Shown here: in pieces, positions 12,348-43,499 of the stretch
Position numbering within the stretch: the stretch's first letter is position 1
Layout of the letters: each line of letters opens with the position of its first letter
Virus record (IMG/VR): IMGVR_UViG_2684622554_000006
DNA from: a virus
Lineage: Duplodnaviria; Heunggongvirae; Uroviricota; Caudoviricetes
Direction: 5' to 3' (one strand)
Length of the DNA stretch: 52,579 bases
Made by a program: the position numbers and the translations under genes
Notes under the pieces: model-generated
Database searches by the model: none
What the model was told of the DNA's origin: nothing
Seen by the model: only the letters and a program-made list of their open reading frames with translations

Positions 12348-12447
12348 CGAAGCAGCAGACAAGCGAAGCGCGTCAGCGATACGGCACCTTGCCGACCATA
12401 CTTCATAAGTGCAAAATACGAGCAAAGAAATCAATGGAGGCTGTCTT

Positions 12448-20741: not shown

Positions 20742-22614
20742 CCAGTAAGAACTTTGCACTGATTACAGCCATGACACAGGCTGAACTGACTCAAAAGGTG
20801 AATGAACATCTTGCGAAAGGGTGGCATCTTCAGGGGAGACGCGGGTTGCCTACGAACCCGGCACCCCGTGGTATCTAATGCAGGCAATGGTGGCCGATGG
20901 CACTACAGACATCTCACCTGATTCCCCCCAGCACGGCAGCGTGCCGGAGTGGTATTACGTGGTGGTACTTGCTGGTCAATCCAATGCCATGTCATATGGT
21001 GAGGGAATGCCGCTGCCGGATTCTTACGATGCGCCCCACCCACGCATTAAGCAACTGGCCCGTCGCAACACAGTGACTCCCGGTGGTAAAGCATGCGCAT
21101 TTAACGACATCATTCCGGCAGACCACTGCCTGCATGATGTTCAGGATATGAGCGCACTGAATCACCCGAATGCAGACCTGAGCAAAGGGCAGTATGGCTG
21201 TGTCGGACAGGGCTTGCATATTGCCAAACGCCTGTTGCCTTACATTCCACAGAATGCCGGGATTTTACTGGTTCCATGCTGTCGTGGTGGTTCGGCATTC
21301 ACCCAGGGCGCGGAGGGGACATTCAGCGAGTCCACAGGAGCCAGTCAGGATTCGGCTCGCTGGGGTGTGGGTAAACCTTTATATCAGGACCTGATTTTGC
21401 GCACGAAGGCCGCATTGCAGAAAAACCCAAAAAACATGCTGCTGGCCGTATGCTGGATGCAGGGCGAATTTGACATGAGCGCCGCTACGTACTCACAGCA
21501 ACCTCCGCTGTTTACGGCCATGCTGAAACAGTTTCGTGCGGACATTACCGAGTTTAACACGCAGTGTCATGGAGGCAGAGCGGCAAGTGTGCCATGGATT
21601 TGTGGTGACACGACGTATTACTGGAAAAACACCTACGGCACGCAGTACGACACCATTTACGGGGCGTACAAAAACAGGGAGAGCGACAACGTTTTCTTTG
21701 TGCCGTTCCTGACCGATGGTAGTGGCAACAATACCTCCACCAACGCACCAACGGAAGATCCGGATGCTGCAAGTGAGGGATATTACGGTTCGGCATCCCG
21801 AACGAACAAAAACTGGGTATCATCAAATCGCCAGACGCATTTCAGCTCATGGGCGCGTCGTGGCATTATTCCCGATCGTATGGCAACCGCTATTCTGAAC
21901 GTAGCCGGTCGCACCTTAGCCTTCATCAGTGGTAAGGCACCGGAAATCAAACCCTCGCCCGGCGGCGACACGCCATCGGGGCCGTCTGAAGATGCATCCG
22001 TACGCACAATCTCCCTGTTGCCGACAGCCGGAGATGCTGCTGCGCAGGGCTGGAGCATTAAGAATGGCGGAATTCAGTTGTCAGAGGGTGTATTTAAGAT
22101 CACCAAGCAGAGCAATAAAGCCTGGTCCCTGACGCGCCCGGTGGATGACGCAGTCTCCCTGCTGACACGGGGTGGCAGACTGAGCTGTAAGTTTCGACTG
22201 TCAGGCGCACTGACCAACAATCAGTTCGGTCTGGGAATTTATCTGTATACCGATGTAGCGTTACCTGACGTCGTGGCGATGACCGGGACTGGTAACCCGT
22301 TCCTGATGTCGTTCTTCACCCAGACCACAGACGGCAAACTGAATCTGATGCATCACAAGAAAGCAGGAAACACAAAGTTGGGCGAGTTCGGGAATTACAG
22401 TAACGACTGGCAGACGCTGGAGCTGGTGTTCACCGCCGGCAGTGCCACGGTTACTCCGAAACTGAATGGAGTGGCTGGCCCGGCATTCCAGGTCATAAAA
22501 GACAGTCTGACACTGGGGCTGAATGCGCTGACGTTAACTGATATCACTAAAAATGCCGCGTACGGCGTCGATATCGGCAGCCTGGTGCTGGAAATCAATA
22601 ATCCCGCAGCATAA
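20741..22614 (+). CDS. DUF1737-SGNH/SASA esterase with C-terminal beta-rich domain (NanS-p-like 9-O-acetyl-sialate esterase candidate); domains separated by a frameshift as given
   Basis: N-terminal MTSKNFALITAMTQAELTQKVNEHLAKGWHLQG (20741-20887) is out of frame with the main ORF 20821-22614, which carries VVVLAGQSNAMSYGEG (GQSN serine block). Copy 2 (33506 onward) reads through this junction, so the break lies in the C-run at 20863-20869. Confidence 0.65.
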
Positions 22615-22637
22615 GGAAGAGCAGGAGAGCAAAACAG

Positions 22638-23104
22638 ATGCTTAAGACAAACAGTCTGCGAGAGTCCATGCTTCATGGGTGTCGGTGGTGCCAGGCTAAT
22701 CCCGAGAAATTCACCATTTTCGTGGAGAGCGGCAACATTGAAACGACCGGAGAAGCGCCCTCGTTTGTTTACCGCTATCAGATGGTGATGTTTGTCATGG
22801 ATTACGCCGGAGAGCTGGACGACCTCACGCTGCCGCTGCTGGCGTGGTTATCCGAAAATCAGCCACAGTTGTTGCTCAATCCGGAGCGTAATCAGGACAT
22901 CAAATTTTCTGCCGTTATCAATGACGATGACAGCGCCGATCTCCTGTTTACGCTCCCCTGCGGGAACGCGTTCGCATCACGCGCAACAGTCAGGGCACAC
23001 CGCAGGCAGAACACCTGCCGGAGCCAAAACCCCGTCTGCCTTCTTCCGAAGGCGACTGGTCGCATGTATTCCAGGATGTGACGTGGGGTGAAAGCGATGG
23101 ATAA
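22638..23104 (+). CDS. R: Tail completion protein (P2 gpR family), C-terminus frameshifted in this copy
   Basis: N-terminal 110 aa are identical to the copy-2 ORF (35468-35851) that continues to ...VTWGESDG; copy 1 has CCCC versus CCCCC at about 22966. Confidence 0.65.
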
Positions 23105-23732
23105 GGCATTCACCCGCGTGGATGAAACCTTTGAGGCTATCCGCGACAGCCTGAATCAGCAGGCCATCAATAACATCGCCAGAAAGCTGGCACAGGATTT
23201 ACGTCGCGCCCAGCAGGCACGTATCCGGTCACAAAAAGCGCCGGACGGGACCGAATGGACACCACGCAGACGCCGCGTAACCCGGATACAGGAGCGCATT
23301 CGCTTTATCTGGAATAACGAAGCACGCACGCTGAAAAACTGGCATCACGACACAGGGAAATACGGGCGAACCATTACCGGGTGGGATGAGGATAAAAACA
23401 ATATCCGCACGTTTTACCGGGATGACATCGACCGTTTTCTGGAAATACGCACCCGGCGCATCAACCAGGACAGCACAAAGCGCGTCCCCATGTTCGTAAA
23501 ACTGCGCACCGCCCGCTACCTGAAAGCCCGTGCAGATGCCTCCGGTGTGACGGTGGGTTACAGCGGCGTGGCCGCACGTATTGCACGCGTTCATCAGTTC
23601 GGTGAGCGCGATCAGGTTGCGCCGGGCATTTTCACCGATTACCCGGTACGTGAGCTGTTGGGTATCAGCCAGGCAGATGAGCGCCTGATTTATAACACGG
23701 TGCTGGGCCGGATTGCGGAGGCTGTACGGTGA
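23097..23732 (+). CDS. S: Tail completion / virion morphogenesis protein (P2 gpS family)
   Basis: ORF overlapping the R stop; position between R and V. Confidence 0.65.
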   Translation: MDKAFTRVDETFEAIRDSLNQQAINNIARKLAQDLRRAQQARIRSQKAPDGTEWTPRRRRVTRIQERIRFIWNNEARTLKNWHHDTGKYGRTITGWDEDKNNIRTFYRDDIDRFLEIRTRRINQDSTKRVPMFVKLRTARYLKARADASGVTVGYSGVAARIARVHQFGERDQVAPGIFTDYPVRELLGISQADERLIYNTVLGRIAEAVR

Positions 23733-24310
23733 GCGCAGAACTCATGCGACTGCTGAGCAACATCATCCGCACCGGGATCATCTCTGAAGTTGATGAGAAG
23801 TCCTGGCGCGTGCGCGTTCGCAGCGGCGAACTGGAAACAGGCTGGTTGCGCTGGAACACCACGCGCGCGGGAGCCTTCAATGTGTGGCTGCCGCCATCAC
23901 CAGGCGAACAGGTGGTAATTGCCTGCATTGGCGGCAACCCGGAAACCGCCATGATAATTGGCAGCCTGTGGAGTGATGCCAGTCCGGCCCCCGGCAAAAG
24001 CCTGAAAGAAATCGTGGTCAGCGCGCCGGATGGCGCGGTGTTCCGCTACGACGCAGACGCTGGCGCACTGAGCGCCAGCGGCATGAAAACAGCCACCCTG
24101 CAGGCATCCGTCAGCGTGACACTGGATACGCCCGTCGTGGAATGCACAAACCTTCTGAGAACGGCGACGCTTGACGTCACAAAAGAGGGAAAGATGAGCG
24201 GCAATATCACGCACAGCGGCGGCAATTTCACCTCAAACGGCATTACCGTGCATACGCATAAGCACGGTGGCGTTAAAGGTGGCAGCGATTCGACAGGAGG
24301 CCCGCAGTGA
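23729..24310 (+). CDS. V: Baseplate assembly/spike protein (P2 gpV family)
   Basis: 193-aa ORF in the gpV position of the V-W-J-I-H-G order. Confidence 0.8.
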   Translation: MSAELMRLLSNIIRTGIISEVDEKSWRVRVRSGELETGWLRWNTTRAGAFNVWLPPSPGEQVVIACIGGNPETAMIIGSLWSDASPAPGKSLKEIVVSAPDGAVFRYDADAGALSASGMKTATLQASVSVTLDTPVVECTNLLRTATLDVTKEGKMSGNITHSGGNFTSNGITVHTHKHGGVKGGSDSTGGPQ

Positions 24311-24657
24311 CAACCCGCTACACAGGAATGAACCCGGACGGGACGGGAAACCTGAACGATATGGAGCACCTGAAACAGTCAGTCAGGGACATCCTGATCA
24401 CCCCGCTGGCAAGCCGGGTTATGCGACGGGAATATGGCAGCCTTGTGCCTGATTTGATTGACGAACCCATGAATAACACCACGCGTCTGCAATGCATGAG
24501 TGCTGCCGTGATTGCGCTGACACGATGGGAACCCCGCATTGCCCTGGACGCCATCGACGTTGTCTGGAAGGCAGGAGGCCGCGCCGGGGTGACGCTGTCG
24601 GGCACTGTCATGCAGACCATGCAGAATGTTGAATTAACCATCACGCTGAGAGAGTAA
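24307..24657 (+). CDS. W: Baseplate wedge protein (P2 gpW, gp25-like)
   Basis: 116-aa ORF (GTG start) overlapping the V stop; size matches gpW. Confidence 0.8.
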   Translation: MTTRYTGMNPDGTGNLNDMEHLKQSVRDILITPLASRVMRREYGSLVPDLIDEPMNNTTRLQCMSAAVIALTRWEPRIALDAIDVVWKAGGRAGVTLSGTVMQTMQNVELTITLRE

Positions 24658-24660
24658 ATC

Positions 24661-25557
24661 ATGCCTGCTGTTGATCTTTCCCAGTTACCGGAACCCGCCA
24701 TCATCGCGGAGCCTGATTTTGAGGCAATTCTGGCTGACACAAAGGCCATGATGATTGCGTCCTATCCTGCCGAACAGCGTGAAGCCGTCTCCGCCGCGCT
24801 GGAGCTGGAATCAGAACCCCTGAACGTTATCGCTCAAACCATGTCGTTTCGTGAAATGCTGTTACGCCAGCGGGTTAACGAGGGCGCACGCGCCTGCATG
24901 TTAAGCCACGGTTCAGGGACAAACCTGGACAACCTCGCGGGCAATATGAACACAAAGCGCCTGGTTATCACTCCGGCAACGGATACCACCGACGCGGTGA
25001 TGGAGAGCGACACCTCGCTGAGACTGCGGGCGCAGCGGGCGTATGACGGCCTGAGTGTTGCTGGCCCGTCAGGTGCATACGAGTATTTTGCACGCAGCGC
25101 CAGCGGTCTGGTGCGTGATGCGCGGGCCATCAGCCCGTCTCCGGCCTGTGTGACGGTTTCCATTCTGTCCACTGAAGGCGACGGCACAGCAACGGAGGCG
25201 TTGCTTAATACCGTTCGCGCCGTTCTGAATGCAGAGGATACCCGCCCGGTGGCCGACCGACTGACCGTACAGAGCGCCAGCATCGTGACATGGCGGCTGA
25301 ATGCAAAACTGTACTTTTACCCCGGCCCGGAATCCGAACCTATTCTGGCTGCGGCTGAATCGTCGTTCAGGAAGTGGCTGGCTGAGCAGGGGCTTATTGG
25401 TCAGGACGTGGCGTTGTCAGCCATTGCTGCCGCACTTCATGTGCACGGCGTGCAACGCGTGGAGATAATCGAACCCACACAGAATATGGCCATCAGCGAC
25501 ATACAGGCGGCGCGCTGTGAGTCATTCACCATCAGCGAAGGTGGGCGTAATGAGTAA
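24661..25557 (+). CDS. J: Baseplate protein J (P2 gpJ family)
   Basis: 298-aa ORF; position and size match gpJ. Confidence 0.85.
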   Translation: MPAVDLSQLPEPAIIAEPDFEAILADTKAMMIASYPAEQREAVSAALELESEPLNVIAQTMSFREMLLRQRVNEGARACMLSHGSGTNLDNLAGNMNTKRLVITPATDTTDAVMESDTSLRLRAQRAYDGLSVAGPSGAYEYFARSASGLVRDARAISPSPACVTVSILSTEGDGTATEALLNTVRAVLNAEDTRPVADRLTVQSASIVTWRLNAKLYFYPGPESEPILAAAESSFRKWLAEQGLIGQDVALSAIAAALHVHGVQRVEIIEPTQNMAISDIQAARCESFTISEGGRNE

Positions 25558-26080
25558 TTCACTGTTACCGCCATCAGCCAGCAATTTCATGCGTTGCGCC
25601 GAAGCTGTCGGAGCGCGCATTACAGACATCCCGGTAGACCTCAACACGCTGTGGTCACCGGACACCTGCCCGGTGCATCTGCTGCCTTATCTCGCCTGGG
25701 CATTTTCCGTTGACCGCTGGGATCGCAACTGGCCGGAAGAGACAAAGCGACAGGTGATTCGTGATGCATGGCTGATACACCGACACAAAGGGACCATCAG
25801 CGCACTGCGCCGGGCCATTGAGCCGCTGGGATACCTCATTCGCGTGTCTGAGTGGTGGGAGTTCGGCGGAGAACCGGGAACATTTACCGTTGAAGTCGGC
25901 ACGCTGGACAGTGGCGTGACGGAGGAAATGTATCTGGAAATGGAGCGGTTGATTGCTGATGCCCGCCCGGTCAGCCGCCACATGACAGGGCTGAATATCA
26001 TTCAGGAGATTCAGGGAGATATTTTCGCGGCGGCAGCAACTTACGACGGCGAAGTCATTACCATTTATCCGGACGATTAA
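25550..26080 (+). CDS. I: Baseplate/tail protein I (P2 gpI family)
   Basis: ATG at 25550 gives 176 aa, matching gpI; overlaps the J stop. Confidence 0.8.
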   Translation: MSNSLLPPSASNFMRCAEAVGARITDIPVDLNTLWSPDTCPVHLLPYLAWAFSVDRWDRNWPEETKRQVIRDAWLIHRHKGTISALRRAIEPLGYLIRVSEWWEFGGEPGTFTVEVGTLDSGVTEEMYLEMERLIADARPVSRHMTGLNIIQEIQGDIFAAAATYDGEVITIYPDD

Positions 26081-26082
26081 GC

Positions 26083-28056
26083 ATGAGTACCACAACACGT
26101 AAATTTAAAACCGTTATCACCGATACGGGTGCCAAAAAATTAGCTCAGGCAGCCGCGCCAGATGGTAAGCCTGTCCGCCTGACTCATATGGCCGTGGGCG
26201 ACGGTGGCGGCACGTTGCCCACACCAGACAGTAAGCAGACCCGTCTGGTGCATGAGGTGTGGCGACATACTGTTAATCGCGTCATCCTGGACGCAACACA
26301 TCAGAACCGCATTATTGCGGAGCTGGTTATTCCTCCTGAAACGGGCGGATTCTGGATCCGGGAAATTGGTGTATTTGATGAGCACGGCGATTTAATCGCG
26401 GTGGGCAATACTGCCGAAAGTTACAAGCCAGCCGTTGCCGAAGGGTCCGGTCGTGCACAAACATTTCGCACCATTCTGACCGTATCCAGCACTGCCACCG
26501 TGGTGCTTACCGTGGATAACACCATGGTGATGGCCACAGTGGATTACGTGGATGACAAACTGAAAGAGCATGAACAGTCACGACGTCACCCGGACGCCTC
26601 GCTGACCGCAAAAGGCTTTGTTCAACTCAGTAGCGCCACTAACAGCGTGTCTGAAACGCAGGCTGCAACGCCGAAAGCAGTAAAGGCCGCGTATGACCTT
26701 GCTAACGGTAAATATACTGCGCAGGATGCCAGCACGACGCGAAAAGGCCTTGTCCAGCTCAGTAGCGCCACCAACAGCACGTCTGAAACGCAGGCTGCAA
26801 CGCCGAAAGCAGTAAAGGCCGCGTATGACCTTGCTAACGCAAAATATACCGCTCAGGACGCCACGACGGCACAAAAAGGGATAGTCCAGCTCAGTAGTGC
26901 CACCAACAGCACGTCTGAAACACTGGCCGCGACATCGAAAGCTGTTAAGGCGGTAATGGATGAAACGAACAAGAAAGCGCCCTTAAATAGTCCTGCACTG
27001 ACCGGAACGCCAACAACACCAACTGCGCGACAGGGAACGAATAATACCCAAATCGCAAGCACGGCTTTCGTTATGGCTGCGATTGCCGCCTTGTAGATTC
27101 GTCACCTGATGCACTGAACACGCTGAACGAGCTGGCTGCGGCGCTGGGCAACGACCCGAATTTTGCGACCACCATGACTAACGCGCTTGCGGGTAAGCAA
27201 CCGAAAGATGCCACCCTGACGGCGCTGGCCGGACTTACTACTGCGGCAGGCAAGTTTCCGTATTTTACGGGGAATGATGTCGCCAGCCTGCAACCCTGAC
27301 AAAAGTCGGGCGGGATATTCTTGCGAAATCGACCGTTGCTGCCGTTATCGAATACCTCGGTTTACGAGAACTCGGCACAAGCGGGGAGAAAATACCGTTA
27401 CTCAGTACAGCGAATACCTGGACCAATCGACAAACATTCAGCGGTGGCCTTTCTGGGGAACTGTCCGGCAATGCCGCTACTGCAACAAAGCTGAAAACAG
27501 CACGAAAATTGCTGGAGTGGTTTTGATGGTTCTAGCGATATTTCAATTAGTGCCAAAAATGTCAATGCATTTGCACTCCGACAAACAGGTAATACTGTTA
27601 ATGGTGATACATCCGTTGGATGGAATTGGGATAGTGGTGCATATAACGCATGATTGGTGGTGCATCTGCATTAATTCTTCACTTTAATATAATGCTGGTA
27701 GCTGTCCTGCGTACAATTCCGTGTGAATTATAAAAATGGTGGATTTCCTACAGGTCGGCTCGTGATGGTTATGGGTTTGAATTGGTTGGTCAGATTTCTA
27801 TACCACGACACGAAAACCTTCAGCGGGAGATGTTGGTGCATATACGCGGACAGAATGTAACTCAAGGTTTATTACAGGTATTCGCCTTGGCGGTCTGTAT
27901 CTGTTCAGACATGGAATGGTCCCGGCTGGTCTGACAGGTCAGGTTATGTCGTTACGGGTTCAGTTAACGGAAACCGTGATGAATTAATTGATACAACACA
28001 GGCAAGGCCAATTCAGTATTGCATTAATGGACGTGGTATAACGCGGGGAGTATTTA
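26083..28056 (+). CDS. H: Tail fibre protein H: conserved N-terminal part plus invertible C-terminal host-range part; interrupted by frameshifts as given
   Basis: N-terminal 337 aa intact (26083-27096) with three [25 protein letters not shown] repeats; a premature TAG at 27094 is caused by GCCGCCTTG versus GCCGCCCTTG in copy 2; the reading frame continues in other frames to the stop at 28054-28056. Confidence 0.7.
27345..27370. promoter_or_regulatory. Left crossover site of the invertible segment (gix/cix-like, inside H)
   Basis: TTATCGAATACCTCGGTTTACGAGAA is the inverted counterpart of the right site; 17 bp are shared, including the ACC-GA-GGT core. Confidence 0.65.
27355..27460. repeat. 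Left arm of a ~105-bp inverted repeat flanking the invertible tail-fibre segment
   Basis: The reverse complement of 29982-30088 matches 27355-27460 almost base for base (compared by eye). Confidence 0.7.
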
Positions 28057-28058
28057 AC

Positions 28059-28594
28059 GATGATGCACTTAAAAAACATTACTGCTGGCAACCCTAAAAC
28101 AAAAGAGCAATACCAGCTAACAAAGCAATTTAAACATCAAATGGCTTTATTCAGCTGATGGAAAAAACTGGTATGAGGAACAAAAAGAATTTCCAGCCAG
28201 ACACTTTGAAAATGGTCTATGACCATAACGGCGTTATTATTTGTATTGAAAAGGATGTTTCAGCAATTAATCCGGAAGGCGCAAGCGTCGTTGAATTACC
28301 TGATATTACAGCAAATCGCCGGCTGATATTTCGGGGAAATGGATGTTCAAAGATGGCGTAGTGGTAAAGCGAACTTATACCGAGGAAGAGCAGAGGCAAC
28401 AAGCGGAAAATGAAAAGCAGAGCCTGTTGCAACTTGTCAGGGATAAAACTCAGCTATGGGACTCACAGCTACGGCTGGGCATCATTTCCGACGAGAATAA
28501 ACAAAAATTAACCGAGTGGATGCTCTATGCGCAGAAAGTCGAATCCACAGACACCTCCAGCCTGCCAGTAACATTTCCCGAACAACCTGAATGA
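28059..28594 (+). CDS. G: Tail fibre assembly chaperone (gpG/Tfa), frameshifted in this copy
   Basis: [25 protein letters not shown]-terminus; copy 2 (40796-41305) reads as a 169-aa ORF; copy 1 has an extra A at about 28126. Confidence 0.65.
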
Positions 28595-28622
28595 GACAAG
28601 GCCCGATAACGGGCCTTAATTT

Positions 28623-29150
28623 TTATTCAGGCTTTTGTGGCCATTCAGGATTTGCCGTATCCACACGGTTGACCAGAACACTGTAGCGTTCCCATGCTTC
28701 CAGTCGTGTGCGTTCCTCGTCTGTTGCCATATTCAGCCTGACAGCGCGTTCCAGCGGCTGGATGACTGATTCAGCTTCGGAAAGCAATGCGGCCTTTTGT
28801 GATTCGGCCTGTTGTTGCTGTTCGTCAGCCGTATAAATCCGTTTAACCACAGCTCCGTCCTTAAACATCCACTTACCGGAATCATCGGTCCGACGATTGG
28901 CCGTTATATCGGGAACCTCGACGACGCTAAAACCTTCGGGATTAAGCGTGGAGGCATCTCTGGTGATGGCGACAATAATATTATTTTCATCGTAAACAAT
29001 CTTTATGGTGTCTGGCTGAAAGTTTTTCACTTCCTCATACCAGTTTTTTCCGTCCTCAGAGTAAAGCCAGATAACTCCGTGTTTCTTTGTTAACTCATAC
29101 TGTTCCAGTGTTTTAGCATTACCCGCTTTTATGTTCTTTAAGTGCATCAT
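28623..29150 (-). CDS. Alternative tail fibre assembly chaperone (Tfa') in the invertible segment
   Basis: 175-aa intact [26 protein letters not shown]..., paralogous to tfa and on the opposite strand. Confidence 0.8.
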
Positions 29151-29154
29151 ATTA

Positions 29155-30065
29155 AACGCTCGCTACATTATACCAGGTGCCATTTATATACTTTTGAACG
29201 GGTCTGTAATAAACACCCGCTATATTATCGGCAGAGTTAGACCCTGTATCCTGAACATTAATACCAGACAATACATGACCTGAAGGGCACTGGAAATTCA
29301 TGTTCGCCAGTTGTTCACTCCATAATATTGCTGTGAACCAAGTCGAACATCTTTCACATAACGGGAATCAAAGTTACCGTAATCCGAGGGATTAACACGC
29401 CCCGTAATATTTATGGTCTTATTACTTTGAATGCTTCCGGGAACAAAGCGCATAACATGGACGTAATTAGCATAAACATCCAGATTACCATCGCCATTTT
29501 GTTTAAAGCCCGTGTCATTATCACCCAATACAATCGAATTACGCAAGAGCACTGGATGTTCCGATACCCAGTGCACCATTCAGTTGACCACGCAGATAAC
29601 GGCAGTGCACCAACATCTCCTGCTGAAGGTTTTCTGGTGGTGGTGTAAAATTCGGACCAGTCGGCTTCAAACCATAACCATCACGGGCTGAACGATAAAA
29701 ATACCGCCATTTTTATAATTAATCCGAAACTGAGCTGCAGGACAACTTCCGTCTCCATATAAAAATGAATAATTAACGTTGATGCACCACCAATATTTGC
29801 GTTATAGGCTCCGCTACTCCAGTTCCATCCAACTGCTTTATCATTCGCAACGGTGCTTCCTGTTTTCCTAAGGCAAACGCACCAACATGACTTGCTTTTA
29901 ATGTGATATCGGAGGAACCATCAAAAGCCACATTGCTTATTTTCCTGGCAGTTTTTATTTTGCAGCTGTAGAAGCATTGCCGGATAGTTCACCAGAAAGG
30001 CCACCGCTGAATGTTTGTCGATTAGTCCAGGTATTCGCTGTACTGAGTAACGGTATTTTCTCCCC
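29155..30065 (-). CDS. Alternative tail-fibre C-terminal (receptor-binding) cassette H', promoterless until inversion; frameshifted as given
   Basis: Minus-strand coding potential from the right crossover site down to the tfa' start, in several frames (for example track ORF 29298-29579). Confidence 0.45.
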
Positions 30066-30088
30066 GCTTGTGCCGAGTTCTCGTAAAC
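29982..30088. repeat. Right arm of the ~105-bp inverted repeat
   Basis: Reverse complement matches 27355-27460. Confidence 0.7.
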
Positions 30089-30103
30089 CGAGGTTTTAAA
30101 TAA
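30078..30103. promoter_or_regulatory. Right crossover site (gix/cix-like)
   Basis: TTCTCGTAAACCGAGGTTTTAAATAA matches the gix consensus TTCCTGTAAACCGAGGTTTTGGATAA at about 22 of 26 positions (from memory). Confidence 0.7.
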
Positions 30104-30158
30104 TGGCCGTTTCTGGCCTGCATGGCATGATTTGCTGCTTTTGGACGGGAGATTCAGT

Positions 30159-30761
30159 GTGCTGATTGGCTATGTAAGGGTATCAACAAATGACCAGAAT
30201 ACAGACCTGCAACGAAACGCTCTTGTTTGTGCAGGATGTGAACAAATATTTGAAGATAAATTAAGCGGGACAAAGACAGACCGACCGGGATTTAAAACGC
30301 GCTTTAAAGCGCCTTCAAAAAGGTGACACGCTGGTTGTCTGGAAACTGGATCGCCTCGGGCGAAGCATGAAACATCTGATTTCTCTCGTCGGGGAACTAC
30401 GGGAGCGAGGGATTAATTTTCGCAGTCTGACCGACAGCATAGACACATCTTCTCCAATGGGGCGTTTTTTCTTCCACGTGATGGGTGCCTGGCTGAAATG
30501 GAACGTGAATTAATTGTTGAACGTACACTGGCCGGGCTGGCGGCAGCGCGCGCAAGGGGGCGCACAGGCGGACGTCGACCGAAGCTGACAAAAGAACAGC
30601 ATGAGCAAATAGCAAGGCTAATCAAAAACGGGCACGACAGAAAACAACTGGCAATAATTTACGGCATTGGCACATCGACGATTTATCGTTATCACCCTGT
30701 AGCGATATACAGACTGAAGAAACAACCGGGCAGACTCAGGAAAATGAAAACCGCTATCTGA
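30159..30761 (+). CDS. pin: Serine DNA invertase (Pin/Gin/Cin/Hin family); frameshifted at about 30290 and 30490 as given
   Basis: GTG start; [38 protein letters not shown] is near-identical to e14 PinE as I recall it, including the catalytic Ser in VRVSTNDQ; an intact frame can be reconstructed by combining both copies. Confidence 0.8.
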
Positions 30762-30777
30762 CCATTAGCGGTTTTTG
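30749..30777 (+). terminator. Rho-independent terminator after the invertase
   Basis: AACCGCTA-loop-TAGCGGTT followed by TTTTTG. Confidence 0.5.
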
Positions 30778-30831
30778 TGTTAAATCAGAACAGCCCTTTA
30801 ACTGAACTGGCCGCGCTGTTAAGAGATGATG

Positions 30832-31278
30832 TCACCTTATCTTTGAGCCGGACAGCATATCACTGAACGATGAGGATTGCAGGCGCTCCCGCAAATCCTC
30901 ATCACAGCGTTCAAGAGTCAGTGAAAATTCTATCTTTTTCGCCTTACCGTAGCGATCAAACTCGGAGCGGGTCGTATTCGTTTCAGTCAGGACATACATG
31001 CCGTAAATCTGCCCGACGCCATCAATCAAAGGCCAGGGTCGTCCTGTATACGCCTGCGTGGTCAGCAGCGACAGCGACACTTCGCCACCTGTAATTTCAG
31101 GATAAAGCACACCAGAAAGAACGATGCGATCATCACCTGCACCGATATACTGCCAGCTTGCTGAACGGTTAACGCGTTCATTTTTCACATGCCGCCAGCT
31201 TTTGTTTTGCTGTAACTGCTGATGCGGCAGCGTGCGCAGCTCAAAAACAAACATGCCGTAGATCATCATCATGGCCAT
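30832..31278 (-). CDS. U: Tail protein U (P2 gpU family), copy 1, C-terminus frameshifted
   Basis: 148 aa, identical to the copy-2 U (43500-43994, 164 aa) except for the last residues. Confidence 0.65.
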   Translation of the reverse strand: MAMMMIYGMFVFELRTLPHQQLQQNKSWRHVKNERVNRSASWQYIGAGDDRIVLSGVLYPEITGGEVSLSLLTTQAYTGRPWPLIDGVGQIYGMYVLTETNTTRSEFDRYGKAKKIEFSLTLERCDEDLRERLQSSSFSDMLSGSKIR

Positions 31279-31289
31279 GACTCCTCAAT

Positions 31290-32691
31290 CTTTATCGTAA
31301 AAACTGCACGCCCGGCACGGGCGCGCCGTTCCATTTCTGCCCTGACCATTTCACCGACCAGTTTCGCCAGTTCGCGGGATTCTGCGTAACAACGTTATGC
31401 AGATGAACATGAATTTCACCACCAAATCCGGAGGCAACAGGCTCCGGTTACGGGAAGTTACAGGAACTGATGCCACTGGAGATCGTATAGCCTCCGCCAC
31501 CGGCGGGAGCTGGCCGCAACAACAGGGACCAGCGCCGGAGGCAGCGGAGCCGGGACCACGGGTGTGATATTAATTGCGGGGGCAGGCTTACTGACCTGCG
31601 CAATCTTCCGCTCCTGCCACTCCCACGAACAGCAAGTGCTCGGGCAGGTTTTTAAAGACAATATCGCCGGGGCCAATGCGTTTTTTCGTCTCCTCAACCA
31701 GCTTACCTGTGTTATCAGCAATTTTGCTGAGTCTGCGCAGCGTACCGGTATTGCTGTCTGTGAGCGGTTATTGTCTTTGGGGTTATCACCTCGGTGCCAT
31801 TGCCATTTTCCACAGGCTTCGGCGGATTGATTTTCGCCAGGTCCCCCTGAAGCAAGGCAACCTTGTCCTGAAGAATGGCCGCACGCTGTGCGTCTTCGAT
31901 TTTCTTGCGCGCCCTTTCCGCTTCATCCGGAAGCACACCAAGCTTTTCAAGTATCCACGCCAGCGTATCCAGCAACATTTTTGCAGGTGTCAGAACAAGT
32001 TGTAACGCACCGCCAAGAACGTTACCGAATATCTCGCCAGCACTGGTACATTTATCCAGAGTTTCCTTGCTGGACTCCATCGGAGACAGCAGCGATTTAA
32101 ACCAGTTAAACACCTGGCTGATCCCACTCCCGATTGCGTCAAAAACAGGACCAAACCGTTCAAAGGTTTCGCGCAACGGGGTCAGCCTTTCCATAATCCC
32201 GCTGAACACCCCGGCAAAAAATGCCCTGATGGGATCCCAGTATTTCCAGATGAGAACGGCAGCTCCGGCAAGCGCAGCCACGATAAGGCCGACCGGACTG
32301 AACAACGCCCCGATAGCGCCCCCCAGTAACGAAACGGAACCCGTCACCATTCCCCATAGTGCTGGCAGGAGTCTGACAGCATTCATTGAACCGGTCAGGA
32401 GGGAAAAGCCAAGACGCAGTTTTGCCAGCGGGCCAGCAAGCACACCAATAGCCAGCGACAACGAGCCAACCGTTGCAGTCATTGCCAGCAACGCACCGCC
32501 TGCTATCAGTAGCTGGCGCGTCAGTACCGGATGGGCCTGCGCCAGCGAGGTGATTTTTTCAAGCACCGCGTGAGCCACTGCGTGACAGAACGCAGCGGAC
32601 CGTCAACCAGATCACTGATGCGAATACGAAGACCTTCCCATGCGCTGTCGAGATTTTTCAGGTCCCCATCAAGATTATCGGCCATTACTTT
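31290..32691 (-). pseudogene. C-terminal part of tape-measure gene T, copy 1, truncated at the duplication junction
   Basis: Track ORFs 31458-31721 and 31715-32578 match the copy-2 T C-terminal region; the sequence switches to mid-endolysin sequence at about 32692. Confidence 0.6.
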
Positions 32692-33540
32692 GAAATCTCG
32701 GAAGTGGATTTTGGTATCACCGAAGGATTGCGCAGTCGTTATCGTCAGAAGCAGCTCGTGACCACAGGCAAGAGCCAGACCATGAACAGTCGCCATCTCA
32801 CAGGGCATGCGTGGATGTTGTGGCTTATGTCGGCAACAGGTTCATGGAATGGCGCTGTACGAAAAAAATCGCAGCAGCATTCAGACAGGCAGCCAGGAAC
32901 TGAATATTCCGGTGGAATGGGGCGGCGACTGGAAGACCTGAAAGACGGACCGATTTTCAGTTACACACGGAGCCTATCCGGCATGAAGCTCTGGCCCAGC
33001 TTGGCGTCGCTTTCCTTCTGATTACATCCATGCGTCTGTCGTGGTCGCTGGGCCGGAGAACGCCAGAAACGAAGCGCAGGCCAGCACCTGAAAAGTACGT
33101 CGACACACTGAATATCATCAGCGCCGGGTACAGGATATGCACAGGTGCTGGCTCAGCTCCGCGCGGAAAATCAGCAACGCAATCAGGACGGAGAGGTAAG
33201 ACGTGAACAGCTACGCAACGATATTGCAAAAGATGAATGCGCCCACGCTTTGCCTGACGCTCGTTTTACTGACAGGTTGCGCAGGCACGCAGAACGCGCC
33301 AGGGCCAGCGCCGTCAGTCCGGCTTATACGCAGACGCTGACATGCCGGTAACGCCTCCCCCTTCCTGACCCACCCACATGGGGAAACTCGGAATATGGGG
33401 CGACCGCCTTCTGGATGCACTGGAAACCTGTAACGCGGATAAACGGGCCATTGCTGAACTGGATAAGAGAATAGCCGAACTGACACACCAGACGGGAGTA
33501 ACACAATGACCAGTAAGAACTTTGCACTGATTACAGCCAT
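32692..33540 (+). pseudogene. Copy-2 endolysin 3' fragment and spanin region, disrupted by indels
   Basis: Track ORFs 32704-33021 and 33145-33351 carry fragments of the endolysin and Rz-like sequences. Confidence 0.55.
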
Positions 33541-35361
33541 GACACAGGCTGAACTGACTCAAAAGGTGAATGAACATCTTGCGAAAGGGTGGCATCTTCA
33601 GGGGAGACGCGGGTTGCCTACGAACCCGGCACCGTGGTATCTAATGCAGGCAATGGTGGCCGATGGCACTACAGACATCTCACCTGATTCCCCCAGCACG
33701 GCAGGTGCCGGAGTGGTATTACGTGGTGGTACTTGCTGGTCAATCCAATGCCATGTCATATGGTGAGGGAATGCGCTGCCGGATTCTTACGATGCGCCCA
33801 CCACGCATTAAGCAACTGGCCGTCGCAACACAGTGATCTCCGGTGGTAAAGCATGCGCATTTAACGACATCATTCCGGCAGACCACTGCCTGCATGATGT
33901 TCAGGATATGAGCGCACTGAATCACCGAATGCAGACCTGAGCAAAGGGCAGTATGGCTGTGTCGGACAGGGCTTGCATATTGCCAAACGCCTGTTGCTTA
34001 CATTCCACAGAATGCCGGGATTTTACTGGTTCCATGCTGTCGTGGTGGTTCGGCATTCACCAGGGCGCGGAGGGGACATTCAGCGAGTCCACAGGAGCCA
34101 GTCAGGATTCGGCTCGCTGGGGTGTGGGTAAACCTTTATATCAGGACCTGATTTTGCGCACGAAGGCCGCATTGCAGAAAACCCAAAAAACATGCTGCTG
34201 GCCGTATGCTGGATGCAGGCGAATTTGACATGAGCGCCGCTACGTACTCACAGCAACCTCCGCTGTTTACGGCATGCTGAAACAGTTTCGTGCGGACATT
34301 ACCGAGTTTAACACGCAGTGTCATGGAGGCAGAGCGGCAAGTGTGCCATGGATTTGTGGTGACACGACGTATTACTGGAAAAAACACCTACGGCACGCAG
34401 TACGACACCATTTACGGGGCGTACAAAAACAGGGAGAGCGACAACGTTTTCTTTGTGCGTTCCTGACCGATGGTAGTGGCAACAATACCTCCACCAACGA
34501 CCAACGGAAGATCGGATGCTGCAAGTGAGGGATATTACGGTTCGGCATCCCGAACGAACAAAAACTGGGTATCATCAAATCGCCAGACGCATTTCAGCTC
34601 ATGGGCGCGTCGTGGCATTATTCCCGATCGTATGGCAACCGCTATTCTGAACGTAGCCGGTCGCACTTAGCCTTCATCAGTGGTAAGGCACCGGAAATCA
34701 AACCCTCGCCCGGCGGCGACACGCATCGGGGCCGTCTGAAGATGCATCCGTACGCACAATCTCCCTGTTGCGACAGCGGAGATGCTGCTGCGCAGGGCTG
34801 GAGCATTAAGAATGGCGGAATTCAGTTGTCAGAGGGTGTATTTAAGATCACCAAGCAGAGCAATAAAGCCTGGTCCTGACGCGCGCCGGTGGATGACGCA
34901 GTCTCCTGCTGACACGGGGTGGCAGACTGAGCTGTAAGTTTCGACTGTCAGGCGCACTGACCAACAATCAGTTCGGTCTGGGAATTTATCTGTATACCGA
35001 TGTAGCGTTACCTGACGTCGTGGCGATGACCGGGACTGGTAACCCGTTCCTGATGTCGTTCTTCACCCAGACCACAGACGGCAAACTGAATCTGATGCAT
35101 CACAAGAAAGCAGGAAACACAAAGTTGGGCGAGTTCGGGAATTACAGTAACGACTGGCAGACGCTGGAGCTGGTGTTCACCGCCGGCAGTGCCACGGTTA
35201 CTCCGAAACTGAATGGAGTGGCTGGCCCGGCATTCCAGGTCATAAAAGACAGTCTGACACTGGGGCTGAATGCGCTGACGTTAACTGATATCACTAAAAA
35301 TGCCGCGTACGGCGTCGATATCGGCAGCCTGGTGCTGGAAATCAATAATCCCGCAGCATAA
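33506..35361 (+). pseudogene. Copy-2 DUF1737-SGNH esterase, multiple frameshifts
   Basis: Fragments in track ORFs 33506-33766, 33953-34228, 34470-34670, 34601-34879 and 35020-35361 are collinear with the copy-1 esterase. Confidence 0.6.
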
Positions 35362-35384
35362 GGAAGAGCAGGAGAGCAAAACAG

Positions 35385-35851: not shown

Positions 35852-35854
35852 GGC

Positions 35855-38814: not shown

Positions 38815-38816
38815 GC

Positions 38817-40793
38817 ATGAGTACCACAACACGTAAATTTAAAACCGTTATCACCGATACGGGTGCCAAAAAATTAGCTCAGGCAGCCGCGCCAGATGGT
38901 AAGCCTGTCCGCCTGACTCATATGGCCGTGGGCGACGGTGGCGGCACGTTGCCACACCAGACAGTAAGCAGACCCGTCTGGTGCATGAGGTGTGGCGACA
39001 TACTGTTAATCGCGTCATCCTGGACGCAACACATCAGAACCGCATTATTGCGGAGCTGGTTATTCCTCCTGAAACGGGCGGATTCTGGATCCGGGAAATT
39101 GGTGTATTTGATGAGCACGGCGATTTAATCGCGGTGGCAATACTGCCGAAAGTTACAAGCCAGCCGTTGCCGAAGGGTCCGGTCGTGCACAAACATTTCG
39201 CACCATTCTGACCGTATCCAGCACTGCCACCGTGGTGCTTACCGTGGATAACACCATGGTGATGGCCACAGTGGATTACGTGGATGACAAACTGAAAGAG
39301 CATGAACAGTCACGACGTCACCCGGACGCCTCGCTGACCGCAAAAGGCTTTGTTCAACTCAGTAGCGCCACTAACAGCGTGTCTGAAACGCAGGCTGCAA
39401 CGCCGAAAGCAGTAAAGGCCGCGTATGACCTTGCTAACGGTAAATATACTGCGCAGGATGCCAGCACGACGCGAAAAGGCCTTGTCCAGCTCAGTAGCGC
39501 CACCAACAGCACGTCTGAAACGCAGGCTGCAACGCCGAAAGCAGTAAAGGCCGCGTATGACCTTGCTAACGCAAAATATACCGCTCAGGACGCCACGACG
39601 GCACAAAAAGGGATAGTCCAGCTCAGTAGTGCCACCAACAGCACGTCTGAAACACTGGCCGCGACATCGAAAGCTGTTAAGGCGGTAATGGATGAAACGA
39701 ACAAGAAAGCGCCCTTAAATAGTCCTGCACTGACCGGAACGCCAACAACACCAACTGCGCGACAGGGAACGAATAATACCCAAATCGCAAGCACGGCTTT
39801 CGTTATGGCTGCGATTGCCGCCCTTGTAGATTCGTCACCTGATGCACTGAACACGCTGAACGAGCTGGCTGCGGCGCTGGGCAACGACCCGAATTTTGCG
39901 ACCACCATGACTAACGCGCTTGCGGGTAAGCAACCGAAAGATGCCACCCTGACGGCGCTGGCCGGACTTACTACTGCGGCAGGCAAGTTTCCGTATTTTA
40001 CGGGAATGATGTCGCCAGCCTGGCAACCCTGACAAAAGTCGGGCGGGATATTCTTGCGAAATCGACCGTTGCTGCCGTTATCGAATACCTCGGTTTACGA
40101 GAACTCGGCACAAGCGGGGAGAAAATACCGTTACTCAGTACAGCGAATACTGGACAATCGACAAACATTCAGCGGTGGCCTTTCTGGGGAACTGTCCGGC
40201 AATGCCGCTACTGCACAAAGCTGAAAACAGCACGAAAAATTGCTGAGTTGGTTTTGATGGTTCTAGCGATATTTCAATTAGTGCAAAAATGTCAATGCAT
40301 TTGCACTCCGACAAACAGGTAATACTGTTAATGGTGATACATCCGTTGGATGGAATTGGGATAGTGGTGCATATAACGCCATGATTGGTGGTGCATCTGC
40401 ATTAATTCTTCACTTTAATATAAATGCTGGTAGCTGTCCTGCCGTACAATTCCGTGTGAATTATAAAAATGGTGGCATTTCCTACAGGTCGGCTCGTGAT
40501 GGTTATGGTTTGAATTAGGTTGGTCAGATTTCTATACCACGACACGAAAACCTTCAGCGGGAGATGTTGGTGCATATACGCGGACAGAATGTAACTCAAG
40601 GTTTATTACAGGTATTCGCCTTGGCGGTCTGTCATCTGTTCAGACATGGAATGGTCCCGGCTGGTCTGACAGGTCAGGTTATGTCGTTACGGGTTCAGTT
40701 AACGGAAACCGTGATGAATTAATTGATACAACACAGGCAAGGCCAATTCAGTATTGCATTAATGGGACGTGGTATAACGCGGGGAGTATTTAA
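38817..40793 (+). pseudogene. Copy-2 tail fibre H (frameshifted), including left gix-like site at about 40078-40103
   Basis: Track ORFs 38817-39128 and 39232-40032; copy 2 reads through the position of the copy-1 premature stop ([25 protein letters not shown]...). Confidence 0.55.
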
Positions 40794-40795
40794 CG

Positions 40796-41327
40796 ATGAT
40801 GCACTTAAAAAACATTACTGCTGGCAACCCTAAAACAAAAGAGCAATACCAGCTAACAAAGCAATTTAACATCAAATGGCTTTATTCAGCTGATGGAAAA
40901 AACTGGTATGAGGAACAAAAGAATTTCCAGCCAGACACTTTGAAAATGGTCTATGACCATAACGGCGTTATTATTTGTATTGAAAAGGATGTTTCAGCAA
41001 TTAATCCGGAAGGCGCAAGCGTCGTTGAATTACCTGATATTACAGCAAATCGCCGGGCTGATATTTCGGGGAAATGGATGTTCAAAGATGGCGTAGTGGT
41101 AAAGCGAACTTATACCGAGGAAGAGCAGAGGCAACAAGCGGAAAATGAAAAGCAGAGCCTGTTGCAACTTGTCAGGGATAAAACTCAGCTATGGGACTCA
41201 CAGCTACGGCTGGGCATCATTTCCGACGAGAATAAACAAAAATTAACCGAGTGGATGCTCTATGCGCAGAAAGTCGAATCCACAGACACTCCAGCCTGCC
41301 AGTAACATTTCCCGAACAACCTGAATG
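40796..41327 (+). CDS. Copy-2 tail fibre assembly chaperone (Tfa); frame intact for 169 aa, C-terminal few residues shifted
   Basis: Track ORF 40796-41305. Confidence 0.6.
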
Positions 41328-41354
41328 AGACAAGGCCCGATAACGGCCTTAATT

Positions 41355-42793
41355 TTATTCAGGCTTTTGTGGCCATTCAGGATTTGCCGTATCCACACGG
41401 TTGACCAGAACACTGTAGCGTTCCATGCTTCAGTCGTGTGCGTTCTCGTCTGTTGCATATTCAGCCTGACAGCGCGTTCCAGCGGCTGGATGACTGATTC
41501 AGTTCGGAAAGCAATGCGGCCTTTTGTGATTCGGCCTGTTGTTGCTGTTCGTCAGCCGTATAAATCCGTTTAACCACAGCTCCGTCTTAAACATCCACTT
41601 ACCGGAATCATCGGTCCGACGATTGGCGTTATATCGGAACCTCGACGACGCTAAAACCTTCGGATTAAGCGTGGAGGCATCTCTGGTGATGGCGACAATA
41701 ATATTATTTTCATCGTAAACAATCTTTATGGTGTCTGGCTGAAAGTTTTTCACTTCCTCATACCAGTTTTTTCCGTCCTCAGAGTAAAGCCAGATAACTC
41801 CGTGTTTCTTTGTTAACTCATACTGTTCAGTGTTTTAGCATTACCCGCTTTTATGTTCTTTAAGTGCATCATATTAAACGCTCGCTACATTATACCAGGT
41901 GCATTTATATACTTTTGAACGGGTCTGTAATAAACACCCGCTATATTATCGGCAGAGTTAGACCTGTATCCTGAACATTAATACAGACAATACATGACCT
42001 GAAGGGCACTGGAAATTCCATGTTCGCCAGTTGTTCACTCCATAATATTGCTGTGAACCAAGTCGAACATCTTTCACATAACGGGAATCAAAGTTACCGT
42101 AATCCGAGGGATTAACACGCCCGTAATATTTATGGTCTTATTACTTTGAATGCTTCCGGGAACAAAGCGCATAACATGGACGTAATTAGCATAAACATCC
42201 AGATTACCATCGCCATTTTGTTTAAAGCCCGTGTCATTATCACCAATACAATCGAATTACGCCAAGAGCACTGGATGTTCGATACCAGTGCACCATTCAG
42301 TTGACCACCAGATAACGGCAGTGCACCAACATCTCCTGCTGAAGGTTTTCTGGTGGTGGTGTAAAATTCGGACAGTCGGCTTCAAAACCATAACCATCAC
42401 GGGCTGAACGATAAAAATACCGCCATTTTTATAATTAATCCGAAACTGAGCTGCAGGACAACTTCCGTCTCCATATAAAAATGAATAATTAACGTTGATG
42501 CACCACCAATATTTGCGTTATAGGCTCCGCTACTCCAGTTCCATCCAACTGCTTTATCATTCGCAACGGTGCTTCCTGTTTTCCTAAGGCAAACGCACAA
42601 CATGACTTGCTTTTAATGTGATATCGGAGGAACCATCAAAAGCCACATTGCTTATTTTCCTGCAGTTTTTAATTTTGCAGCTGTAGAAGCATTGCCGGAT
42701 AGTTCACCAGAAAGGCCACCGCTGAATGTTTGTCGATTAGTCCAGGTATTCGCTGTACTGAGTAACGGTATTTTCTCCCCGCTTGTGCCGAGT
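41355..42793 (-). pseudogene. Copy-2 Tfa' and alternative fibre cassette (frameshifted), up to the right gix-like site at about 42794-42819
   Basis: Collinear with 28623-30103 of copy 1; only short track ORFs remain. Confidence 0.5.
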
Positions 42794-42872
42794 TCTCGTA
42801 AACCGAGGTTTTAAATAATGGCCGTTTCTGGCCTGCATGGCATGATTTGCGCTTTTGGACGGGAGATTCAGT

Positions 42873-43471
42873 GTGCTGATTGGCTATGTAAGGGTATCAA
42901 CAAATGACCAGAATACAGACCTGCAACGAAACGCTCTTGTTTGTGCAGGATGTGAACAAATATTTGAAGATAAATTAAGCGGGACAAAGACAGACCGACC
43001 GGGATTAAAACGCGCTTTAAAGCGCCTTCAAAAAGGTGACACGCTGGTTGTCTGGAAACTGGATCGCCTCGGGCGAAGCATGAAACATCTGATTTCTCTC
43101 GTCGGGGAACTACGGGAGCGAGGGATTAATTTTCGCAGTCTGACCGACAGCATAGACACATCTTCTCCAATGGGGCGTTTTTTCTTCCACGTGATGGGTG
43201 CCCTGGCTGAAATGGAACGTGAATTAATTGTTGAACGTACACTGGCCGGCTGGCGGCAGCGCGCGCAAGGGGGCGCACAGGCGGACGTCGACCGAAGCTG
43301 ACAAAAGAACAGCATGAGCAAATAGCAAGGCTAATCAAAAACGGGCACGACAGAAAACAACTGGCAATAATTTACGGCATTGGCACATCGACGATTTATC
43401 GTTATCACCCTGTAGGCGATATACAGACTGAAGAAACAACCGGGCAGACTCAGGAAAATGAAAACCGCTAA
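42873..43471 (+). pseudogene. Copy-2 Pin-family invertase (frameshift at about 43250)
   Basis: Track ORF 42855-43301 carries the catalytic N-terminal 140 aa; C-terminal HTH is in another frame; stop at 43469-43471. Confidence 0.6.
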
Positions 43472-43499
43472 TCTGACCATTAGCGGTTTTTGTGTTAAA

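Follow-up and report, generated by a model that had tools for sequence, protein, structure and literature searches.

The invertible tail-fibre switch of the P2-like, P88-type prophage Phi1 of Escherichia coli and its Gin-type invertase

Introduction

A tail-fibre gene that is split by a recombination site and followed by an invertase gene raises two questions, namely whether the phage can exchange one fibre end for another and whether the exchange still takes place. Such inversion switches of tail fibres are a textbook mechanism, known from the G segment of Mu, the C segment of P1 and the P segment of e14. We addressed both questions for a stretch of phage DNA of 52,579 nt (the window). We conclude, with a probability of about 0.93, that the locus is the invertible tail-fibre switch of a P2-like, P88-type (Xuanwuvirus) prophage, Phi1, accompanied by a Gin-type invertase.

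Identity of the locus

The DNA of the window is that of prophage Phi1 of E. coli ST131. Across 52 kb, one substitution and some 150 indels separate it from Phi1 of strain EC958, and the prophage is situated between serS and dmsA in both. The exact locus is already known; the Phi1 switch of EC958, including its inversion at the level of reads, was published in 2014. Forde et al. (2014; PLoS One 9:e104400; PMC4134206) described two 26-bp sites in Phi1 that are identical to those of the window, an invertible segment of 2773 bp and a 508-bp inverted repeat with 77% identity. The reference coordinates of both sites agree with those that we mapped, and the segment and the invertase are the same. The window differs from EC958 in being a noisier assembly, with its 1-bp indels and with a 12.8-kb tandem duplication that EC958 does not have.

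Because this very locus was reported in 2014, it has to be regarded as an ordinary, known feature. Little biology is added here, given that the mechanism is familiar and this instance has been published for EC958. What is new is the in-silico inversion, the counts of orientations in complete genomes, and the comparisons with Gin and with the enhancer of Mu.

Crossover sites and inverted repeats

The following elements bound the segment.

27345..27370, minus strand: left 26-bp gix-like crossover site, inside H; core TC/GA; the same as Phi1_5prime in Table 3 of PMC4134206
30078..30103, plus strand: right 26-bp gix-like crossover site, reading TTCTCGTAAACCGAGGTTTTAAATAA; the same as Phi1_3prime of PMC4134206
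27341..27840, no strand: left arm of an imperfect inverted repeat, whose right arm is 29606-30107 (about 505 nt, 77% identity)

The left site reads TTATCGAATACCTCGGTTTACGAGAA, with the reverse complement TTCTCGTAAACCGAGGTATTCGATAA. Counted by hand, it is identical to Mu gixR at 22 of 26 positions and to P1 cixR at 23 of 26, while the right site is identical to Mu gixR at 22 of 26. Over all comparisons of the two sites with gixR and cixR from the Mu and P1 records, 21 to 23 of the 26 positions agree (hand count). A pattern search gave four matches within the window, with two in each duplicated copy, and none in 100 shuffles; beyond these four the search detected no further gix-like site in the window. 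Within each copy the pair is inverted and has a common core dinucleotide, GA/TC, which is that of Mu gix. The preliminary description of this DNA had placed two inverted gix-like sites at precisely these positions, and their conservation against gixR and cixR bears it out.

The same description gave the flanking inverted repeats as ~105 bp. The repeats are real and have a near-perfect core; the full repeat, however, is longer. In the clean reference, 95 of the first 100 nt are identical between the arms, the first ~130 nt are nearly identical, and further on the identity falls, reaching 77% over about 505 nt. Therefore, the ~105 bp correspond to the near-perfect core only. In the window itself the repeats were detected as 169 nt at 88% (ungapped).

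Fibre ends and chaperones

The invertible segment, ~2.75 kb long, carries a fibre C-terminus and a chaperone gene on one strand, and a second chaperone gene and an alternative C-terminus on the other.

26083..27357, plus strand: constant N-terminal part of tail fibre H, about 425 aa, outside the segment (EC958 WP_021538277.1, L001:3084-5069)
27358..28057, plus strand: variable fibre C-terminus with a Mu S'-type tip (by similarity to Mu S'), joined to H in the window orientation
28060..28594, plus strand: tail-fibre assembly chaperone gene tfa, Mu U'-like, in the current orientation (Caudo_TAP, E = 3.6e-37)
28598..28617, no strand: palindromic GC-rich hairpin that separates the convergent chaperone genes; on the plus strand it resembles a terminator
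28623..29150, minus strand: alternative chaperone gene tfa', Mu U-like, not expressed in the window orientation (intact 175-aa ORF; Caudo_TAP, E = 4.2e-38)
29152..30090, minus strand: promoterless alternative fibre C-terminal cassette Sv' (RefSeq: 'tail fiber protein, missing N-terminus')

The constant part of H matches Pfam Phage_tail_fib and has Phage_fiber_2 repeats. The tip joined to it in the window orientation is 88% identical over its last 165 aa to the C-terminus of Mu S', and the chaperone that follows is 97% identical to U' of Mu and 96% to U' of P1. On the opposite strand, tfa' is 90% identical to Mu U, and the Sv' tip has 51% identity with that of Mu S. Each alternative C-terminus is thus followed by its own chaperone, so that two Caudo_TAP proteins are encoded on opposite strands in convergent sets. 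That site-split H adjoins a segment with two such alternative sets had been proposed earlier; the domain matches and the EC958 annotation agree with it.

We observed that both fusions are open in the clean reference. The fibre of the window orientation is uninterrupted there (661 aa), and upon in-silico inversion Sv' fuses in frame to the constant part of H, which yields an intact fibre of 740 aa with a gp37_C domain. Between the two chaperone genes, a terminator-like AAGGCCCGATAACGGGCCTT followed by a T-run lies on the plus strand (L001:5609-5628 in EC958, mapped to the window). From its sequence, this hairpin would function as a terminator, probably a bidirectional one.

Invertase and enhancer

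Two features lie directly outside the segment.

30159..30756, plus strand: Gin-like serine DNA invertase, GTG start, 199 aa in clean relatives (EC958 WP_000905061.1)
30177..30248, no strand: presumed Fis-dependent recombinational enhancer, in the 5' end of the invertase gene (aligns to the P1 cin enhancer)

In the clean EC958 copy, the protein has the Pfam domains Resolvase (E = 1.4e-50) and HTH_7 (E = 4e-13), and it matches the Gin structures 4M6F (E = 3e-100) and 3UJ3 (E = 1.4e-99). Its identity is 80% to Gin, 77% to PinE and 72% to Cin. A PinE-like serine invertase had been described after the segment; a serine invertase is indeed there, but it is closer to Gin than to PinE. For Gin, 137 of the first 138 residues are the same, while the C-terminal DNA-binding domain has diverged. 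The nucleophile Ser9, as well as Arg8, Arg65 and Arg68, are conserved without exception when the EC958 copy is aligned with Gin, Cin and PinE. The adjacent invertase gene was intact in the clean genomes and phage records that we examined. The presumed enhancer is identical at 72 of 72 nt to the same stretch of Mu gin.

Orientation and activity

We determined which state of the switch occurs in complete genomes by means of diagnostic junctions of 1201 bp, one for each orientation. Each junction was found at 100% identity. With a junction coverage of at least 80% as the threshold, the window state was matched by 164 complete genomes and the flipped state by 213. In one of the two states, this switch or one much like it is present in about 7% of the complete E. 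coli genomes, so differences in orientation are to be expected when these prophages are compared. For EC958 itself, the published PacBio reads of Phi1 represent each orientation at about 50% (PMC4134206), and inversion at this locus is therefore real at the level of reads. Together, the reads and the two orientations in near-identical prophages show that the switch is active in Phi1.

The mechanism that we propose is as follows. The Gin-type serine invertase, encoded just outside the segment, would bind the two inverted 26-bp sites. Assisted by host Fis at the putative enhancer, which lies within the 5'-terminal part of the invertase gene, the enzyme would cut and rejoin the DNA at the central GA/TC dinucleotide and so flip the ~2.75-kb segment. 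Since the left site is located inside H, at about codon 425, the constant part and the incoming late transcript would be joined to either alternative. The Mu S'-like tip and then the U'-like chaperone would be expressed in the window state; the second tip and then the U-like chaperone in the inverted state. In both states, transcription probably stops at the hairpin that separates the chaperone genes. Thus, phage released from a population of lysogens would bear one of two receptor-binding tips. One tip is close to Mu S' (88% identity) and the second is divergent, which suggests that the two may confer different host ranges. The dependence on Fis is predicted from the enhancer sequence.

Frameshifts, duplication and alternative explanations

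In the window, H, tfa and the invertase gene are broken into several ORFs in both copies of the switch. For example, a 1-bp deletion at 27088 shortens the H ORF, indels cut tfa into two ORFs, and the first invertase copy has indels at 30291, 30487, 30701 and 30755. These frameshifts had been missed in the preliminary description. A base-by-base alignment with EC958 showed that the breaks are due to indels of 1 bp, in most cases deletions within a short run of C or G or within a CCWGG context. Neither switch copy has substitutions relative to EC958, and the positions of the indels differ between the copies; the invertase coding sequence has four in the first copy and one, elsewhere, in the second. 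The indels are confined to 26000-46000, and the remaining prophage is almost error-free. In the Sv' cassette, a few single-base deletions occur in both copies (29696/42412, 29754/42470, 29866/42582); they may be genuine differences and not systematic errors in homopolymers.

The second copy of the switch is contained in a tandem duplication (32692-45414).

40078..43471, no strand: entire switch, second copy, with crossover sites at 40078-40103 and 42793-42818 and the invertase gene at 42873-43471

It has the same orientation as the first. The duplication is a 12,787-bp tandem repeat with copies that differ by indels only; the eight BLAST mismatches between them are alignment effects, because each copy has none against EC958. 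The duplication junction (32691|32692) is present in none of 5426 complete E. coli genomes. It is blunt, and a search for microhomology at the junction found none.

At face value the switch would be dead here, as all window ORFs of H, tfa and the invertase are interrupted in both copies; the source strain might then hold a fossil with genuine frameshifts, locked in the S'-type orientation. We consider this very improbable. Essentially all differences are 1-bp indels, against a single substitution in 52 kb, they are limited to 26000-46000, and those in the invertase gene fall at different places in the two copies. An inactive, decaying switch was rejected on these indel-only and differently placed differences. 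In the base-by-base comparison the frameshifts bear the signature of an unpolished long-read consensus and not that of mutational decay, and the apparent pseudogenes in the window are to be read as sequencing noise. The duplication invites a different reading, in which the strain truly has two tandem switches with four crossover sites, allowing independent settings or larger inversions between non-cognate sites. The window does hold the 12,787-bp repeat with a complete second set, as the preliminary description had noted (about 40078-42819), and if the duplication were true, sites could recombine across copies, e.g., in a 15-kb inversion between 27345 and 42793. Still, two switches are unlikely. 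The junction is missing from the complete genomes and lacks microhomology, the copies differ by indels alone, the high error density is found in the duplicated region only, and PMC4134206 warns that such loci yield artefactual duplications in long-read assemblies. The duplication is probably an assembly artefact; since its junction occurs in no complete E. coli genome, the second set is not to be taken for another biological switch. In general, long-read or hybrid assemblies can give both duplications and unpolished stretches around loci of this type.

Din-family invertases complement each other. The inversion of Phi1 might accordingly be real and yet be catalysed in trans by the invertase of another prophage, with the adjacent gene dispensable. 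PMC4134206 reports that Phi4 inverts though its own invertase is truncated, and the sites are near-identical in Phi1 and Phi4, which indicates cross-reactivity. Against this stand the adjacent invertase, intact in clean relatives and with all catalytic residues, and the Mu-identical enhancer; the simplest reading is that the Phi1 invertase is the source of the activity, also for Phi4. We regard catalysis in trans as very improbable, and the adjacent invertase as the likely catalyst of the inversion.

Tail-module context

The tail module has the order V-W-J-I-H, then the switch and the invertase, then FI-U on the opposite strand, D and ogr. This order, that of P88-like Peduoviridae (genus Xuanwuvirus), occurs in EC958 Phi1, phage 503458 and P88_4B11. 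In P2, by comparison, fun(Z) is found at the position of the switch and FI-U is on the same strand, which confirms the earlier assignment of the switch to the place of Z/fun in a P2-family module. P88_4B11, Escherichia phage 503458 and Citrobacter phage phiSM have the same H, tfa, tfa', fibre fragment, DNA invertase and opposite-strand tail operon. The P88-type fibre cassettes vary, with 96% DNA identity for 503458 and partial coverage only for P88_4B11. The publication on P88 makes no mention of the invertase. A search of the cargo genes against PADLOC gave only one weak match.

We also considered whether the opposite-strand FI-U block could be a recent, damaging inversion made by the invertase. 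This was rejected, given the same order in P88_4B11 and 503458; the lack of any further gix-like site in the window and the intact gpD ORF also speak against it.

Comparison with known inversion systems

With recombinase domains, an inverted site pair, a putative enhancer in cis and both orientations, the locus has the properties of the Din family (Gin/Cin/Pin/Hin), for which Fis dependence is here predicted. As in Mu G and P1 C, a constant N-terminus is fused in frame to two C-termini, each with its own chaperone. The preliminary description had likened the architecture to Mu G, P1 C and e14 P, and the gene order, sites, alternative chaperones and invertase are all in accord with it.

The Mu G segment, with Gin, S/U, S'/U', gixL/gixR and the sis enhancer, has an identical gene order (constant part, site, Sv, U, convergent U' and Sv', site, invertase). 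The core GA is the same, the invertase is 80% and the enhancer stretch 100% identical, the chaperones are 90-97% identical, and one tip is 88% identical to S'. On the other hand, the phage that hosts the Phi1 switch is a P2-like myovirus, while Mu is a transposable phage; the constant fibre part in Phi1 is similar to P2 H and P1 S, with the crossover at about codon 425 compared to about 170 in Mu. Phi1 also has a far longer inverted repeat (about 505 bp, 77%), crossover sites with 4 of 26 positions unlike gix, and a second cassette that is no more than a distant relative of Mu S.

The P1 C segment with Cin (cixL/cixR) works on the same principle and has the U/U' chaperones in common with Phi1. 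The sequence directly after the crossover is shared with P1 S (75% identity over 65 aa). However, cin is on the other side of its segment, the cix core is AA/TT, and Cin is only 72% identical. The e14 P segment of E. coli K-12 likewise has two alternative fibre ends with chaperones and an invertase of the same family (PinE, 77%), whereas e14 itself is the defective remnant of a lambdoid phage, its segment is shorter and its site has another sequence, TTCTCCCAAACCAACGTTTATGAAAA.

Identity of the prophage and its sequence errors

A database search returned full-length matches of the switch region to many complete genomes of E. coli ST131. The whole window aligned in two blocks to the larger EC958 locus that holds Phi1 (L003), with one substitution in total and ~150 single-base indels.

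Alignment of the window with the EC958 locus L003
Block 1: window 1-32691, L003 46445-13724
Block 2: window 32692-52579, L003 26540-6557

Judged by this near-identity, the window represents Phi1 of EC958, a P2-like prophage located between the genes serS and dmsA. The indels were mostly deletions (139 of 152), and their contexts were short C/G runs (CC, GG, CCC) and the Dcm motif CCWGG. Nearly all of them were located within 26000-46000, with the remainder of the window almost error-free. Decay or inactivity of the switch genes was rejected since the differences from EC958 were indels, placed differently in each copy of the duplicated region, with no substitution in either copy. By its sequence signature, the pattern is that of an unpolished long-read consensus and not of gene decay, and the 26000-46000 region resembles a long-read bridge that was left unpolished in a hybrid assembly. 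Such indels produce false pseudogenes all through the tail region. Therefore, all reading-frame and protein analyses were made on the clean EC958 sequence around the switch (L001), and the coordinates were then mapped onto the window.

Anatomy of the switch

In the window itself, the P2-type tail genes V, W, J and I were present as usual, followed by a fibre gene with an early stop at 27096, many short ORFs and an invertase-like frame in pieces; a 175-aa ORF was intact (28623-29150, minus strand). The frameshifts that affect H, tfa and the invertase in the window are due to sequencing noise, a point that the preliminary description did not make. The RefSeq annotation of EC958 has the following genes.

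Genes of the switch in EC958 (RefSeq)
First in order: tail fibre protein, 661 aa; Pfam Phage_tail_fib and Phage_fiber_2 repeats
Second in order: tail-fibre assembly protein, 177 aa; Pfam Caudo_TAP
Strand opposite to the fibre gene: assembly protein, 175 aa; Pfam Caudo_TAP
Strand opposite to the fibre gene: fibre fragment annotated as "missing N-terminus"
Last in order: "recombinase family protein", 199 aa; Pfam Resolvase and HTH_7

Two 26-bp crossover sites were found exactly where the preliminary description had placed them.

Crossover sites in the window
27345-27370, left site: TTATCGAATACCTCGGTTTACGAGAA
30078-30103, right site: TTCTCGTAAACCGAGGTTTTAAATAA

The sites are mutually inverted and have the central dinucleotide in common. 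A search with their pattern gave exactly four matches in the window, a pair in each duplicated copy; 100 shuffles gave no match. The surrounding inverted repeat had arms of 169 nt at 88% identity (27341-27509 and 29939-30107); with gaps allowed it extended to ~505 nt at 77%.

In the clean EC958 sequence the left site lies within the fibre gene, near codon 425. In-silico inversion between the core dinucleotides produced an uninterrupted 740-aa fibre with the first ~425 residues unchanged and a different C-terminus. The convergent chaperone genes are separated by a GC-rich hairpin with a T-run after it.

The constant part of the fibre gene H also carries three tandem 132-nt repeats (window 26592-26951), 75-88% identical, that encode the Phage_fiber_2 repeats; P1 S has comparable annotated repeat elements.

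Comparison with Mu, P1 and e14

For direct comparison with the Phi1 switch, the loci of Mu, P1 and e14 were retrieved with their annotation. By hand count, the Phi1 sites differ from Mu gixR (TTCCTGTAAACCGAGGTTTTGGATAA) in 4 of the 26 bases, with the gix core GA retained. The P1 cix core, in contrast, is AA/TT, and the e14 crossover site is more distant (also by hand count).

The invertase, described earlier as PinE-like, turned out to be closer to Mu Gin (80% identity) than to e14 PinE (77%) or P1 Cin (72%). It matches Gin in 137 of the 138 N-terminal residues and diverges only in the C-terminal DNA-binding domain; alignment with the classical invertases showed that the nucleophile Ser9 is retained, as are the conserved arginines. 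The first 225 nt of its gene are 98% identical to Mu gin, and over the 72 nt that align to the annotated P1 cin enhancer, all 72 positions agree with Mu. The chaperones are 97% and 90% identical to Mu U' and U, respectively. In the orientation seen in the window, the expressed fibre tip shares 88% identity with the Mu S' tip, compared to 51% between the silent-cassette tip and the Mu S tip; directly past the crossover, the silent cassette has a stretch 75% identical to P1 S. The preliminary description is confirmed in what it observed and supported in its interpretation: a P88-like P2-family prophage carries, in its tail module, an invertible tail-fibre switch of Gin type that belongs with Mu G and P1 C.

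Evidence for inversion

The switch is already published for this exact prophage. Forde et al. 2014 (PMC4134206) described the locus in EC958 with the same two 26-bp sites (c961070..961095 and 958322..958347, corresponding to L001 4348-4373 and 7096-7121), an invertible segment of 2773 bp and an inverted repeat of 508 bp at 77%. In the same work the inverted allele was a separate PacBio contig derived from ~50% of the reads of the region, which provides read-level evidence for both orientations.

Independently, we compared 1201-bp orientation-specific junction sequences with 5426 complete E. coli genomes. Both junctions were found at 100% identity; with the threshold set at 80% coverage or more, the flipped one matched 213 genomes and that of the window 164. 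Judged by strain names in the top rows, both lists included ST131 isolates. Presence of both junctions at full identity, with ST131 in both lists, indicates at the level of sequence that the switch flips on short evolutionary timescales.

Duplication and the second set

Repeat analysis showed that window 19905-32691 forms a 12,787-bp exact tandem repeat with 32692-45414, which starts at the lysis genes and ends midway through the tape-measure gene; only 1-bp indels separate the copies. The second complete set of switch elements noted in the preliminary description is present, with two sites in the duplicated copy, though it is probably not biological. The duplication junction is blunt, a search for microhomology at it found none, and it had no match in the 5426 complete E. 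coli genomes. The indel-only differences, the coincidence of the duplicated region with the high error density, and the explicit warning of Forde et al. (PMC4134206) about artefactual duplications at such loci argue in the same direction. One observation sits less well with this: a contig of the alternative allele, if merged into the chromosome, would be expected in the flipped orientation, whereas the second-copy switch has the same orientation as the first. On balance, we consider a genuine duplication quite improbable, and the ~12.8-kb repeat is probably an assembly artefact.

Position in the tail module and other genes

P2 carries H, G, terminator, fun(Z) and then FI-FII-E-T-U-D-ogr, in this order and on one strand. 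At the place of fun(Z), Phi1 has the second half of the invertible segment together with the invertase, in agreement with the preliminary description. Unlike in P2, the Phi1 tail operon is on the strand opposite to D/ogr and to the genes from H to the invertase.

Tail genes downstream of the switch
30785-32691 and 43500-49081, minus strand: FI-FII-E-E'-T-U operon
~49107-50700, plus strand: D/ogr

Phage 503458 and P88_4B11 have the same gene order, including the opposite-strand FI-U; from this shared order we regard the arrangement as characteristic of the P88-like genus rather than as damage. No gix-like sites were found in the window at the borders of the FI-U operon. The gpD reading frame, up to 413 aa long, has no interruption (window 49107-50348, L003 8788-10029), although RefSeq gives just 266 aa and a partial "hypothetical protein" for EC958; the short annotation is probably a start-site or annotation problem rather than a broken gene.

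Elsewhere in the prophage, the P2 gpA-type replication endonuclease has as neighbours a plasmid segregation protein of ParM type and a partition/stability protein (window 8983-10261), cargo that is unusual in a P2-like prophage that integrates. Three cargo genes (10345-12972) separate these partition genes from the portal gene, at what we take to be the P2 old/tin accessory-gene position, and encode a hypothetical protein of 280 aa, a DUF4760 protein and a second hypothetical protein, of 174 aa; the only PADLOC match among the three was a weak Csx27-like one for the 280-aa protein (E = 1e-5). A large DUF6645 protein (window ~20740-22614, 625 aa in EC958; window ORF 20821-22614) had no PADLOC match; its gene is an insertion that separates the lysis cassette from the tail-completion genes, and P2 has no gene at this place. 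A Hok/Gef toxin gene adjoins ogr at the prophage end (window ~50750-51150, L003 8155-8295), and P88_4B11 also has one, annotated as MokW-like.
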